A stretch of 64,000 bases of DNA. It comes from Eledone cirrhosa (lineage: Eukaryota). The stretch's first letter is position 1; every line of letters starts with the position of its first letter. The notes under the pieces were generated by a model, which worked only from the letters and a program-made list of their open reading frames with translations, had not been told where the DNA came from and searched no databases. Made by a program: the position numbers and the translations under genes. This document shows, in pieces, positions 11,948-19,380 of the stretch. Location: assembly GCA_964016885.1 (NCBI GenBank), contig OZ024753.1:44826001-44890000 (forward strand), read 5' to 3'.

Positions 11948-12411
11948 TATATATATATAAAAAAATAAAAATTATCGAGAATCGGAATCTCGGCCCACGA
12001 ACTAACGAAACACAATCTTCGAAATGTGTGGCAAAGTGCTCAATAGTTTGGATAAACCAGAGCTATAACTAACGTTTAATACCAACACACTGAGACGATG
12101 CTTAAACAATCATTCGCACAGCCGAAAATACGACCAAGAAAATTCGGGTCAGACAAATAAAAATATATATGAATGAAAAATATATATGGATGAAAAATAT
12201 ATATGAAATATATATATTATATACATATTTATAATATATATATATATATATATTATATACATATTTATTATATATAATATATATGTATGTATTAATATAT
12301 ATAGAGTAATTATTTATTATTAATAAAAATATACTATATATAAAATGGGAAGTATACAATCTAAAAAGAATCGAACTCACGAACGTGAAGTCGCAATGCC
12401 TTTAAATACTT

Positions 12412-12490
12412 TGCGCATGCGCACTGATGTCTACTTTTTTTGCGCATGTGTAATTGGCCTAATTCTGTTTCACAAAAACAAAATGGCCGC
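12412..12490 (+). promoter_or_regulatory. Candidate Pol II promoter with NRF1-type and YY1-type motifs
   Basis: TGCGCATGCGCA at 12412-12423, second variant at 12441, CAAAATGGCCGC at 12479-12490; donor ag|gtaaag at 12563. Confidence 0.45.
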
Positions 12491-12879
12491 TGGAGCAATT
12501 TCTTTTTTTTTTCCAGCCGAATGAAAAACGTTAAAAACTTGGATTTTACTATTTATAAAGAGGTAAAGTAAAGTTTTATGTTTATTTCCTTCCATAAACG
12601 TCAGCAATAATTATTGAAACGATAGTTTTGTTCTACTACTACAACATCTCCACGTGGTGTTGTATTTCAATGGTGCTCATTGTTACGTGATAGATTAATC
12701 ATGCTATATTATCTTATGCCAGAAGGTTACGTTTCCAAAGCAATCCAGGGGAACAGACAGATATGATGTTGTCATTGCTTATGTCTGTTCCACTTTACAT
12801 GTGTGTGCAGTTGATTGTCAATCTGCCACTCCTAGTACGCAGTTAGAACCATTGAAGTATACCCTCATGGCACACCAAA

Positions 12880-13650
12880 ACCACCCTCCTCCATAGTTGG
12901 TCAATTCCAGGTCAGAGAGTGATTGAAGCAGTTTAAGGACGTATACTTCTCGTGGGAACCTCTACGGCCAGCTACTTCTCGTAGGATGCTCTTGGTCAAT
13001 GCCAGGTTGGATAGGGACATGAGCACTTTAAAGGCGTAAACATCTCGTACGATCCTCTACGGCCAGCTAAACCATGATCAGTGCCTACTTAGAGGGCGTA
13101 AACATCCTCGACAGCCAGCTAAACCCTGGTCACTAAAACCACTCTCCTCCACAGTTTGTGAATTCCAGGTGAGAGGGCGATTGAAGCACTTTAAGAGCGT
13201 AAACATCTCGTCCGATCCTCTACGACCAGCTAAACCTTGGTTAGATGGTGAAATAAGCAGTTTAAGGCCGTATACTTCTCGTGGGATCCTCTACGGCCAG
13301 CTAAACCATGATCAGTGCCTGTTTAGAGGGTGTAAACATCTCGTAGGAACCTCTACAGCCAGCTAAACCCTGCTCAATGTTGTGAGAGAGCGATTGAAGC
13401 ACTTTAAAGGCGTAAACTTCTCGTACGATAATCTCTGGTCAGAGGGTGAAAGAAGCAGTTTTAGAATGCATACTTCCCATAGTATTTCCTACAGCCAGCT
13501 TAACCCTAGTCACTACAAGCTTAGAGGGCGAGAGAAGCATATACTTCACATAGTATCTCCTATAGCCAAAGAAGCAGTTTTATAGCGTATACGTCCCATA
13601 TGATGTCCTACGGCCAACTAAACGCTGGTCAGTACCAGTTAAGAGGACGA
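12880..13650. repeat. Degenerate ~60 bp tandem repeat
   Basis: Recurring cctctacggccagctaaacc and gcagtttaagg.cgtatacttctcgt. Confidence 0.85.
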
Positions 13651-13973
13651 AAGAAGCAAGTCATTAATGTTGCTGGACTGTCGTCTAAACGGAGTTAAAA
13701 GATTGAATGAATGGAGGTAATTCGTTCGTTTTTTTGTATATGCGTACCTCGGGTAACTCTGTTTAAATAATTATTTAAACGTTTCTGAAGAGAGAAACTA
13801 AGATTGTATATCAAGTCTCTAAAGAATGATGAAGTGTCTTAAGACAACAATGTCAAGTGCATTTCTAAACTTTGCAGTTTTGACACATCTATACGTTGTA
13901 TCCCTGCTGCCCTCCATATATACATACACACGTATGTATATGCATAAGTATATATATACTCATATATTTCCGC

Positions 13974-14028
<55 letters not shown>

Positions 14029-14477
14029 CACACAGCATGTGTACGCTGGGAGATTCAGCATATACACACATTCGTAATAAAATTCTAATTACCAAAATAG
14101 GTATCTGAAATTCTAATTACTAAAATCTAAGGTTTGCATCTTATTTCCAGAAACTAAATTACTTTAGATATTGAAACGGAATGAGAGTGAGATAACACAC
14201 GAAATATATTTTGAGACGTGTTATCTCCCTTTCCGTTTCTATTTTTTTTTTTTTAATAAATAAAATTTTGACTAATAAATATGACTAATTCACTCAGTAG
14301 AAGTGAATTTTTTTTAGACACTTCATTTAGTTTCTTAGTTTTAGACACTGTTCAAGGGAGATATCTCTTACTTTGAAAGAGTTACCTCCCTTTATTCTTA
14401 GCTTCTTTATTTAGAAACTTCATATACACTTACGTTCTTTATAGTACGTCTTACTCAGTTTCTTGTAGACTCTTGAT

Positions 14478-14705
14478 TTCTTTATTCATTTTTGTCAAAA
14501 TAAACTGAATACAATTCGTATATAAGAGATAAACTTTCTTTATTCATTTTTGGCAAGAAAAACTGAATACAATTCGTATATAAGATGTAAACTTTCTTTA
14601 TTCATTTTTGGCAAAATAAACTGAATACAATTCGTATATAAGATGTAAACTTTCTTTATTCATTTTTGTCAAAATAAACTGAATACAATTCGTATATAAG
14701 ATGTA
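14478..14705. repeat. ~59 bp tandem repeat, ~4 copies
   Basis: Unit ttctttattcatttttgtcaaaataaactgaatacaattcgtatataagatgtaaact. Confidence 0.9.
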
Positions 14706-15224
14706 AAGAAAGAAAGAATGTAGATGAAGTGTATAAAGAAGAATGTAATTAGTCCGCACACCCTTGTTTAATTGACAATGTATAAGTTTAAAATTTTTTA
14801 TTGACAACGTATGTAAATGATTTTCATAGTTTTTCTTATTTCATTTTTCTTACAGATGTCCAGCCTTCTCGGTCATATGCTGTGTTGTTTGCCGTAACCA
14901 TTGAGGGAATGTTTTTACAAGTCGAAGTTTTCTGAACGTGTCTGTTAATAAATAAAAATATGTTTACATATTATTTACGAAATGTATGAAAAAAGATTTT
15001 AATAAAAAAATCCTTACACATTATTTACGAGTTGTGTTCAGTATATTTTGAAAAAAACTATATTAAAATTTCTACATATTGTATACGACTTATGTTGTTA
15101 CTTTGACAATGAAAAAAATTAGCCTAATAAATGGCTTCTAATTACTTCTTTTTGTAAAAAGTAAAGGGAAGCTACTCTTCAGCATTTTTTTTTCCACTCA
15201 ATCTCAGAGGGGGACCCCCGTTAA

Positions 15225-17232: not shown

Positions 17233-17234
17233 AA

Positions 17235-17560
17235 TTGTGGAGATTGTGTCGCTGCATGTGGCATCCCAGACGAGATGTTTACCACCGTGGACCGGAAAGA
17301 TGGTCATGACATCTGGCCTGTTGCCGTCCCCTCGGTCCAACTGGGAGGGAAATCCTGCAGCATCCAAGTCATGCTTGATGACCTCGTTGAGAGCAGCATA
17401 GCGTGGCAGGCGACCAGCACTGTAGCCACATTTGTAAGGTGGTCTGTTGCCATCCAAGATCGTCAAACTTGATGTTGCATATCTCTTCAGCTGCCGCTCA
17501 GATACAAGTGTCAAGGTCAGTAAGGAGAGTAGCATGGCATGGCTCTAAGCAGGCACTGAC
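17235..17560 (-). mobile_element. Decayed non-LTR retrotransposon fragment with restriction-like endonuclease (CRE-like)
   Basis: CGYSAGRLPRYAALNEVIK...AGFPSQLDRGDGNRPDVMTIFPVHGGKHLVWDATCSDT matches the zinc-knuckle/RPD...WD RLE signature. Confidence 0.75.
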
Positions 17561-17867
17561 TACAAAAAGTATGTCCTTAAACTGTTCCTTTCGCACTCTA
17601 AGCAGCACTTACTATGGTTTAGCTGGCCGTAGAGGATCCTACCAAATATTCCTTTGTCCTGCCTGTGCACTCACAATTGATGGACAACTATAAGTGTACT
17701 CATATATAAGCCAGACGACCCATGCAAGCGTGGGAGATACTATGGGACATTGACCCTGGTTTCACGTGGCCGTAGGAGATGCTATGTGAAGTATATGCCC
17801 TAAAACTGCTTCTTTTTCAATCTAAGCTTACGATGGTCAGAGCTTAGTTGGCCGTAGGAGATAGTCT

Positions 17868-18790
17868 GGGACATATACACTCTAAACAAGACTAGGATCC
17901 AATGGGACATATACACTCTAAACAAAACTAAGATCCTATGGGACATATACACTCTAAACAAAACTAAGATCCTATAGGACATATACACTCTAAACAAAAC
18001 TAAGATCCTATGGGACATATACACTCTCAACAAGACTAAGATCCTATAGGACATATACACTCTAAACAAGACTGAGATCCTATAGGACATATACACTCTA
18101 AACAAGACTGAGATCCTATAGGACATATACACTCTAAACAAGACTAGGATCCTATAGGACATATACACTCTAAACAAGACTAGGATCCTATAGGACATAT
18201 ACACTCTAAACAAGACTAAGATCCTATAGGACATATACACTCTAAACAAGACTAGGATCCTATAGGACATATACACTCTAAACAAAACTGAGATCCTATA
18301 GGACATATTCACTCTAAACAAAACTAAGATCCTATAGGACATATACACTCTAAACAAGACTAAGATCCTATAGGACATATACACTCTAAACAAGACTGAG
18401 ATCCTATAGGACATATACACTCTAAACAAGACAGAGATCCTATAGGACATATACACTCTAAACAAGACTAAGATCCTATAGGACATATACACTCTAAACA
18501 AGACTAAGATCCTATAGGACATATACACTCTAAACAAGACAGAGATCCTATAGGACATATACACTCTAAACAAGACTAAGATCCTATAGGACATATACAC
18601 TCTAAACAAGACTAAGATCCTATAGGACATATACACCCTGAACAAAACTAAGATCCTATAGGACATATACACTCTAAACAAGACTATGGGACATATACAC
18701 CCTGAACAAAACTAAGATCCTATAGGACATATACACTCTAAACAAAAATAACATCCTATCTGACATATACACCCTGAACAAAACTAAGAG
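17868..18790. repeat. 36 bp minisatellite, ~25 copies
   Basis: Unit ggacatatacactctaaacaagactaagatcctata; 12-aa periodicity in the ORF track. Confidence 0.95.
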
Positions 18791-19176
18791 TGTAAATCAA
18801 GTTTCTAAAGAAAGAAACTAAGAATGTTACGTAAATTAAAGCGATATCGATCTAGTTAACACTGATCAACAGTTAATCTTTGATTACGGTGATCATATCT
18901 AAAAAAAATCGTTCAAAACTTACGATTATAGCCAAATCGAGTTATTTACAAACTTAAATGATAAACAAAAATACGCTATTCGCGAGAGGGGTGTTGTATG
19001 ACATTAGAATGTAAGGTATGACAGAAGCTAAACAAAACTAACGTTTAAATAATTATTACTGACATTATGGAGGGAAACTGTTTCATAAAATAAAGCTTTA
19101 CTGTACCTCCGCAAAAATAGTAAAATCCAAGGTTTTAACGTTTTTTATTCAAGTTGGAAAACATGAAGTTCTTCCC

Positions 19177-19255
19177 GTGGCCATTTTATTTTTCCTAAAC
19201 AGAGTTACCCGAAGTACGCATGCGCATTCTAAGTGGACATCAATGCGCATGCGCG
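19177..19255 (-). promoter_or_regulatory. Mirror candidate promoter (NRF1/YY1-type) on the right arm
   Basis: tgcgcatgcgcg at 19244, tacgcatgcgca at 19215, gtggccatttt at 19177; donor on the minus strand at 19105-19106. Confidence 0.45.
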
Positions 19256-19284
19256 AAGTATTTGTGTGAAGTGTCGGTCTTTAC

Positions 19285-19380
19285 AATCGTGAGTTCGATT
19301 CTCAGACCAGGCTTTGCGTTGTGTTCTTGAGCAAGACACTTTATTTCAAGTTGCTCCGAATCATACAGCAGTAGAAATTA
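19285..19380 (+). mobile_element. Second SINE family, head fragment
   Basis: gagttcgattc B-box plus gttgtgttcttgagcaagacactttatttca; reverse fragment at 19662-19742; others at 30750, 48790, 49770 and 50600. Confidence 0.7.

Follow-up and report, generated by a model that had tools for sequence, protein, structure and literature searches.

A likely convergent pair of non-coding two-exon genes at a putative old inverted duplication in Eledone cirrhosa

Octopus long non-coding RNAs (lncRNAs) with embedded fragments of short interspersed elements (SINEs), as described in the accessible part of PMC9115989, are close counterparts of the locus reported here, a pair of inverted, diverged arms that appear to carry convergent genes at 12367-19302 of a 64,000-nucleotide stretch from Eledone cirrhosa (NCBI GenBank assembly GCA_964016885.1, contig OZ024753.1, positions 44,826,001 to 44,890,000 of the forward strand; the whole stretch is hereafter the window). 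Our locus resembles these lncRNAs in being short, spliced and apparently non-coding, with a SINE-like neighbour and local duplication, and differs from those covered in that part of the source in that its paralogs face each other, carry exon-2 heads that are complementary and enclose a hairpin, and were amplified as a unit. Drosophila hairpin RNA (hpRNA) loci such as the hp-tHMG cluster and Nmy likewise combine inverted duplicated gene fragments, splicing and tandem amplification, and are defined, in the available sections of PMC10317233, by one transcript across both arms and by Dcr-2-dependent small interfering RNAs (siRNAs) against the parent gene. In contrast to these loci, each arm here has its own putative promoter, the arms are 69-76% alike, and there is no known parent gene. 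Foldback transposons (Tetris, in the available extract of PMC4079207, as well as FB and Galileo) resemble our locus in the lack of an open reading frame (ORF) and in long inverted arms with internal tandem repeats, although here only 21-36% of the arms align and the arrays differ between arms. Complete copies such as Tetris carry target-site duplications of 8-10 bp, whereas the E. cirrhosa locus has neither a target-site duplication nor defined ends, and displays co-duplicated flanks, gene-like conservation and a splice junction. Non-coding transcripts are also produced by two octopus Z-linked loci, Zmast, which covers 18 kb and has exons of several kb, and Zfest, whose 13.8-kb transcript lies antisense to Amnionless (accessible part of bioRxiv 10.1101/2024.12.09.627507); identity with either was rejected on anatomy, the comparison being one of descriptions and not of sequences.

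No description of such a paired family was found in the literature searched, the scope of which left out subscription journals and genome annotations. DIRS-type elements have inverted terminal repeats with inward promoters and may yield both sense and antisense RNA; our locus departs from them in having no gag, reverse-transcriptase (RT) or tyrosine-recombinase ORFs, in its far more diverged arms, and in its ends, which are not delimited. On balance, we lean towards a reading in which a short two-exon lncRNA gene underwent inverted duplication long ago and the resulting convergent pair was later amplified. The homology, the duplication and one junction of the right-hand type are observed directly; a short non-coding RNA is the likely product. 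At a minimum, this would be a likely expressed multi-copy non-coding gene family, with a splice junction that was first predicted from the bare sequence and later found in read contigs, and a clean case of an inverted small-gene duplication decaying except at the promoter, splice sites and exon head.

Inverted homology and anatomy of the two genes

In self-comparison, the outer pair (12367-12632 against 19302-19031) aligned at 76% over 277 columns (190 bits, E 2e-49) and the inner pair (14784-15057 against 15705-15474) at 69% identity (117 bits), for a top match of 30.1 bits among 50 block-shuffled control sequences. Both pairs had been proposed in a preliminary description of this DNA, which rightly took the arms to be clearly diverged and which presented the whole as one 7 kb palindrome, with pairs concentric around a hairpin at 15225-15329. 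The inverted homology holds, but the single palindrome does not: inverted matches of at least 40 bits are patchy, covering 1047 of the 2904 left-arm bases (36%) and 831 of the 4023 right-arm bases (21%). The pairs keep their nested order with unequal midpoints, which range from 15252-15266 (inner pair) through 15277 (hairpin) and 15345 (ggccag repeats) to 15835 (outer pair), so that they are not concentric. Nor do the ttcttag/ctaagaa modules form a concentric pair, since they flank the hairpin on each side without a consistent orientation (plus strand at 14394 and 15379; minus strand at 15767, 15918 and 18789). As for the ggccagctaaacc-type repeats ascribed to both arms, diverged copies were recovered within the left intron by self-comparison and regular expression (12880-13650, plus strand); the ggccag motif has six regular-expression matches on the left and two on the right, where a separate array of 36-bp units takes up most of 17870-18790. 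What looked like a palindrome is likely what remains of an old inverted duplication of a gene.

Both genes follow a common order, namely a SINE-like remnant, promoter motifs, a short exon 1, a donor, ggccag repeats, ttcttag modules, an acceptor and exon 2. On the left (plus strand), the outer arm at 12367-12632 extends from the SINE-like remnant to the first 70 nt of the intron, and includes a CpG-rich promoter-like region at 12413-12488 (GCGCATGCGC at 12413, AAAATGGCC at 12480) and a predicted exon 1 at 12490-12562 with its GT donor at 12563; the 2.3 kb intron (12563-14855) closes with a conserved 3' end and acceptor (14796-14855, 91% ungapped to the right arm), followed by the head of exon 2 (14856-14975). 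On the right (minus strand), exon 1 and the promoter-like region lie at 19107-19254 (AAAATGGCC at 19179, GCGCATGCGC at 19245, GT donor at 19106), the 3.5 kb intron, placed by its splice sites and by a junction described below, at 15648-19106, and exon 2, which starts at 15647, at 15474-15647. Donors and acceptors, the latter being AGs ending at 14855 and 15648, are as first proposed. The same is true of the motifs, with two NRF1-type sites per arm (exact at 12413 and 19245, each with an imperfect second copy, at 12442 and about 19216) and a YY1-type site kept in both; NRF1 and YY1 are consensus labels that we presume to apply, and these are candidate sites whose binding is predicted. Across the window, exact GCGCATGCGC is confined to four arm promoters (two here and two in the second copy of the locus, described below), and AAAATGGCC/G to these four and to one site beside each copy of the hairpin. 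The CpG observed/expected ratio is 1.5 in both promoters, which places the left in the top 3.4% and the right in the top 0.8% of 647 non-simple 200-bp windows.

Without gaps, the arms are 70% identical over the SINE-like head and 79% over the promoter; exon 1 reaches 65% and then 86% (3' part), and the first 70 nt of the intron 89%, vs. 46% in the neighbouring intron. On the 3' side, identity is 53% in the intron and 91% in its last 60 nt, and exon 2 has a 44-nt core at 91% and 85% beyond this core, with large gaps present. Conservation between the arms is thus highest at the promoter, the splice sites and the exon-2 head. The AATAAA signals noted earlier at 14947 and 15574 are indeed present but carry little information in this AT-rich DNA, as 12000-19600 holds 18 on the plus strand (13.2 expected) and 18 on the minus strand (7.2 expected), many of them within tandem repeats.

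Between the two genes, the central hairpin (15225-15330) is predicted at -52 kcal/mol (z -9.8, with 0 of 200 shuffles equally stable), in agreement with the preliminary description; it has T/A tracts at its ends and AATAAA at 15316 (plus strand) and 15233 (minus strand). A further motif, AAAATGGCG, which we take to be of YY1 type, stands directly 3' of the hairpin at 15331 and, in the second copy, at 45535, where the stem extends over the motif.

Not mentioned in the preliminary description, a second direct copy of the cassette 12197-22136 lies about 30 kb away at 42448-53546 (plus strand; self-comparison). The two copies differ by 0.2-2.9% substitutions in 12 segments, in the lengths of their arrays and by two insertions, and in copy 2 the left exon 2 has given way to CpG-rich sequence and to an additional exon 2 on the minus strand (44757-45182). 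The flanks 12197-12366 and 19303-22136 were duplicated along with the arms, and both ends of both copies fall within TA tracts. The right outer end continues past 19302 into a dispersed repeat (19260-19357, plus strand, 81-85% to four other window sites), presumably a SINE. These two copies may be haplotypes placed in tandem and not a true duplication.

Three further observations concern the second copy and its surroundings. The densest CpG of the window (17 CpG per 200 bp) is at 44613-44740, where copy 2 lost its left exon 2; this segment has no tRNA, no Rfam match and a fold not above shuffles (z -1.3). The segments 20911-22136 and 52322-53546, which contain diverged internal repeats, are 99.3% identical, above most of the cassette, and are possibly a recent conversion or a young element. 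Finally, two TG/TA-rich microsatellite arrays, at 22114-30070 (8 kb) and 31294-41668 (10 kb), lie between the cassette copies in opposed orientations (GC skew +0.7 and -0.85).

Splicing in sequencing reads

Read contigs from four coded runs of one study, each containing part of 12380-15960 and none recorded as RNA, were aligned to 12300-15980 at 85% likeness, X1-X3 being from one sample (about 1400 million letters each) and X4 from another (88 million). Such contigs carry no strand, start or end, their summed depth is not a copy count, and their depth does not allow the parts of a gene to be ranked. Runs X1-X3 are DNA-like, covering 30 of 30 bins with 1130-1185 contigs each, mostly 85-95% alike, and therefore suggest that many more copies of the cassette exist; in X3, a contig of depth 63 crosses the left end of the locus, from 12300 to 12498. 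In X4, a single contig (depth 44.4, with a 36-letter side) joins 12554 to 15649 on opposite strands, a joint with depth 0 in X1-X3. A simulated spliced right gene placed on the same stretch gave 12519-12554 (plus strand, 36 nt) and then 15649 onward (minus strand), which reproduces the X4 joint exactly, because over 12519-12554 the right and left versions of exon 1 agree at 34 of 36 letters, after which the right one passes to its own acceptor. An unspliced right donor would continue to 12579/12632, unlike this joint, and a loose end in X4 before 12519 resembles the right exon 1.

Relative to the mean of X1-X3, X4 depth has a median of 0.46 (minimum 0.19) in the 6 exon-bearing bins and 0.023 (maximum 0.088) in the 17 bins of the left intron, i.e., about 20-fold greater on exon bins than on intron bins, with 0.09-0.37 in 4 centre bins, where the central hairpin is covered. 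X4 is likely an RNA run in which the right-type gene is spliced as predicted. On the left, X4 contigs extend exon 1 back to about 12417, and one of them (piece 25) covers 12417-12562 and stops at the left donor, a weak hint for this exon; a left-type variant contig extends to 15142. The proposal of two convergent non-coding genes is thereby strengthened on two sides, by the right junction that matches the simulation and by conservation that peaks at the promoter, splice sites and exon-2 head. The expected spliced reads were in part recovered: the right-type junction is seen at its predicted sites, and none of the 15 joint rows listed, of 128, has the left junction (12562 to 14856).

If the locus is a duplicated gene pair, each CpG-rich promoter with its NRF1/YY1-type motifs would drive an inward Pol II transcript, from which splicing would remove a repeat-filled intron of 2.3 kb or 3.5 kb (the right-type junction being seen and the left presumed). 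Judging from the unstranded contigs, the mature RNA would consist of an exon 1 of roughly 100-150 nt and an exon 2 reaching some hundreds of bases into the common centre. The likely working part of this RNA, acting as sequence and not as codons, would be the conserved stretch around the junction, and the central hairpin, with an AATAAA and an A-tract per strand, would likely provide a shared 3' end zone; a function for the RNA is putative. The introns would then have expanded independently, through tandem arrays and a retrotransposon insertion, and segmental duplication would have amplified the pair, both ends lying within TA tracts.

Several observations weigh against this reading. X4 is not on record as RNA and is RNA-like by behaviour, the splice joint is one contig in one run, from the runs of a single study, and the left junction, as said, is absent from the rows listed. 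X4 depth is 189 in the bin 14760-14882, which includes the last 96 nt of the left intron, vs. 63 in the next exon-2 bin, and an intronic X4 contig at 14640-14843 has depth 32, neither of which a clean two-exon model accounts for; this coverage of the left intron's 3' end (14640-14855) could be due to an alternative acceptor site, intron retention, read-through on the antisense strand or cross-mapping. The runs also differ from the window at fixed sites (e.g., 14901, 15298 and 15742), so that the expressed copies are relatives of those in the window and not the latter themselves. The spliced models have no excess structure compared to shuffles (z +0.8 and +1.1), the left exon 2 was lost in copy 2, and intron ends are conserved as strongly as exons, a pattern that gene conversion between the arms could also give.

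Character of the RNA and alternative explanations

Over an 84-nt core around the junction, 75 of 84 positions are identical between the arms, and in the three frames the 9 differences alter 0, 1 and 1 codons synonymously and 6, 5 and 6 non-synonymously (from two paralogs only). As no frame has a synonymous excess, the constraint, if any, would be on nucleotides. The longest ORF from an ATG common to both arms has 13 codons, and the four ORFs tried all had no significant Pfam match, in line with the earlier statement that the region has no transposase or convincing ORF. At the gathering score, Rfam gave 0 matches in the window, with sub-threshold hairpin matches only (the top one being plant MIR5284, at 45.7 vs. 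a cut-off of 93); ARAGORN gave 0 genes, and no metagenome contig matched the 26-nt core of exon 2. Six short motifs gave 0 matches in the accessible text of the octopus miRNA paper (PMC9699675), an uninformative result, since that text showed no miRNA sequences. Pairing between intron ends was no better than shuffles on the left (108/200) and marginal on the right (14/200). A role as small nucleolar RNA (snoRNA) host was considered and rejected, the left intron having one C box without a D box 40-150 nt after it and the right intron no C box, and no Rfam match was obtained for C/D or H/ACA snoRNAs, the H/ACA scan consisting of Rfam only.

A by-product RNA, transcribed and functionless, might also arise from a duplicated CpG promoter where usable splice sites are present, the conserved patches being left by gene conversion between the arms. 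This would account for intron ends that match exons in conservation, for a copy 2 that is without the left exon 2 after only 1-2% divergence, for the lack of an ORF signature, of excess structure in the spliced RNA and of an Rfam match, and for the satellite-rich neighbourhood without a recognisable host gene. We nonetheless consider it unlikely, since the patches sit on the promoter, donor, acceptor and exon-2 head, at two sites separated by 2-3 kb and with neighbours at ~50%, and the junction contig has a depth (44) comparable to other major X4 contigs. That the RNA instead encodes a micropeptide, exon 2 opening with the ATG of the 13-codon ORF in both arms, appears highly improbable: ATG, stop and 11 of the 13 codons are identical between the arms, but that frame has 0 synonymous vs. 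6 non-synonymous codons over the 84-nt core, and the upstream in-frame ATG of the left exon 1 is missing on the right. The first proposal for the locus had included a foldback-type non-autonomous transposon, which would be a DNA transposon delimited by the 270-bp inverted arms, and the many copies, inverted arms, internal tandem repeats and missing ORF do recall foldback anatomy (PMC4079207, in the part available). However, the end regions (38 nt and 40 nt) have no direct repeat of at least 4 nt in common, the right end runs on into a dispersed repeat, and the copies are alike beyond both ends, with the flanks 12197-12366 and 19303-22136 co-duplicated and a high-depth contig crossing the left end; together, these results argue that this is not a transposon bounded by the arms. 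With arms that are also only 76% alike, we retain next to no probability for this origin.

Heavy RNA editing and microRNA (miRNA) expansion are well known in the animal group to which E. cirrhosa belongs, and two further alternatives involve RNA folding. The pair might act as an hpRNA, a source of endogenous siRNAs, or as an ADAR substrate: two inward promoters would produce spliced transcripts that cross the centre and the partner's exon-2 head as far as a conserved opposite-strand AATAAA, found just beyond that head in each arm (14797 and 15685), and the resulting 0.9 kb hairpin would feed Dicer or ADAR. A read-through RNA of 14780-15710 is predicted to form helices on both strands (22, 19, 26, 12, 17 and 26 bp on the plus strand; 25, 21, 26, 12 and 27 bp on the minus strand), the centre is covered in X4, though no piece spans it and the contigs are unstranded, and spliced, tandemly amplified hpRNAs exist in Drosophila according to the available part of PMC10317233. 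The two mature RNAs are same-sense and hence cannot form a duplex together unless read-through occurs in one of them. The long double-stranded RNA (dsRNA) envisaged at first is in that sense possible by read-through only, the 7 kb arms being mostly non-complementary and the predicted helices 12-27 bp long, with loops between them. Moreover, differences within the inner arm show no G-U strand bias (3 vs. 3; 6 vs. 11), and the A>G/T>C vs. C>T/G>A places number 52 vs. 42 in X4 for 65/51, 68/58 and 70/54 in X1-X3, a weak test as contigs drop rare variants. X4 depth drops to 16.7 near 15200, the left inner arm is missing in copy 2, and the window holds no target gene homologous to the arms. We therefore judge this model distinctly unlikely; if true, with read-through hairpins diced or edited, it would provide a defined, testable endogenous dsRNA locus and an hpRNA-like system outside flies, derived from a self-targeting paralog pair. 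Still less probable, in our view, is a miRNA host gene, with a pre-miRNA in the central hairpin or in one of two others, at 14173-14239 (plus strand, intronic, of pre-miRNA size, z -5.9, without an Rfam match at the gathering score) and 15888-15965 (minus strand, built of ttcttag/ctaagaa modules, z -8.4). The central stem is long and stable (z -9.8), its plus strand folds better through two G-U pairs, a run variant at 15298 changes one G-U to A-U and keeps the pair, and the cassette copies differ at 1 of 106 positions; but 15298=A leaves a single wobble and hence a thin strand signal, 1/106 falls within the 0.2-2.9% background, no Rfam family reaches its gathering score (MIR5284 being far below its cut-off), and the region holds several similar hairpins made of repeat modules.

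Repeats within the introns and across the window

As judged from their repeats, the intron interiors of the convergent pair have diverged by independent expansion. The left intron gained a 58-bp array of four copies, which together with a ttcttag module spans 14394-14707 (plus strand; repeat search) and is a direct repeat of 15376-15550. It also contains a hairpin at 13686-13765 (plus strand, z -3.6; fold prediction and self-comparison), of which the 26-nt stretch 13740-13765 resembles the right promoter (19221-19196) at 96%, outside the nested order. In the right intron, repeat searches identified a 92-bp tandem array of about 12 copies at 16005-17234 and a 36-bp tandem array at 17869-18789 (25.8 copies), the latter nearly absent in cassette copy 2. 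Between these arrays, the right intron's ggccag-type repeats (17577-17886, minus strand; self-comparison) are in sense orientation, as in the left gene, and a retrotransposon fragment at 17224-17544 (minus strand), likewise absent from the preliminary description, matches the C-terminal region (residues 811-882) of a reverse-transcriptase (PF00078) retrotransposon protein of 979 aa, with 64% identity across 72 aa; we take this element to be of the type with a CRE-like restriction-like endonuclease.

Elsewhere in the window, a 170-bp local inverted repeat (11776-11947), 83% self-complementary, resembling a miniature inverted-repeat transposable element (MITE) and unique in the window, lies immediately 5' of cassette copy 1. 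Another dispersed SINE-like family, whose members are 86-97% alike, occurs in both orientations at 9854-10039, 10690-10864, 11175-11391, 55756-55963, 57391-57586 and 60038-60231. Within satellite sequence, an 88-aa open frame at 25448-25711 (minus strand) has two unnamed homologs at 64-75% and presumably corresponds to the C-terminal end of a long interspersed element (LINE) protein. Lastly, a 39-bp tandem array with at least 68 copies occupies 61281-64000 and continues past the window end.

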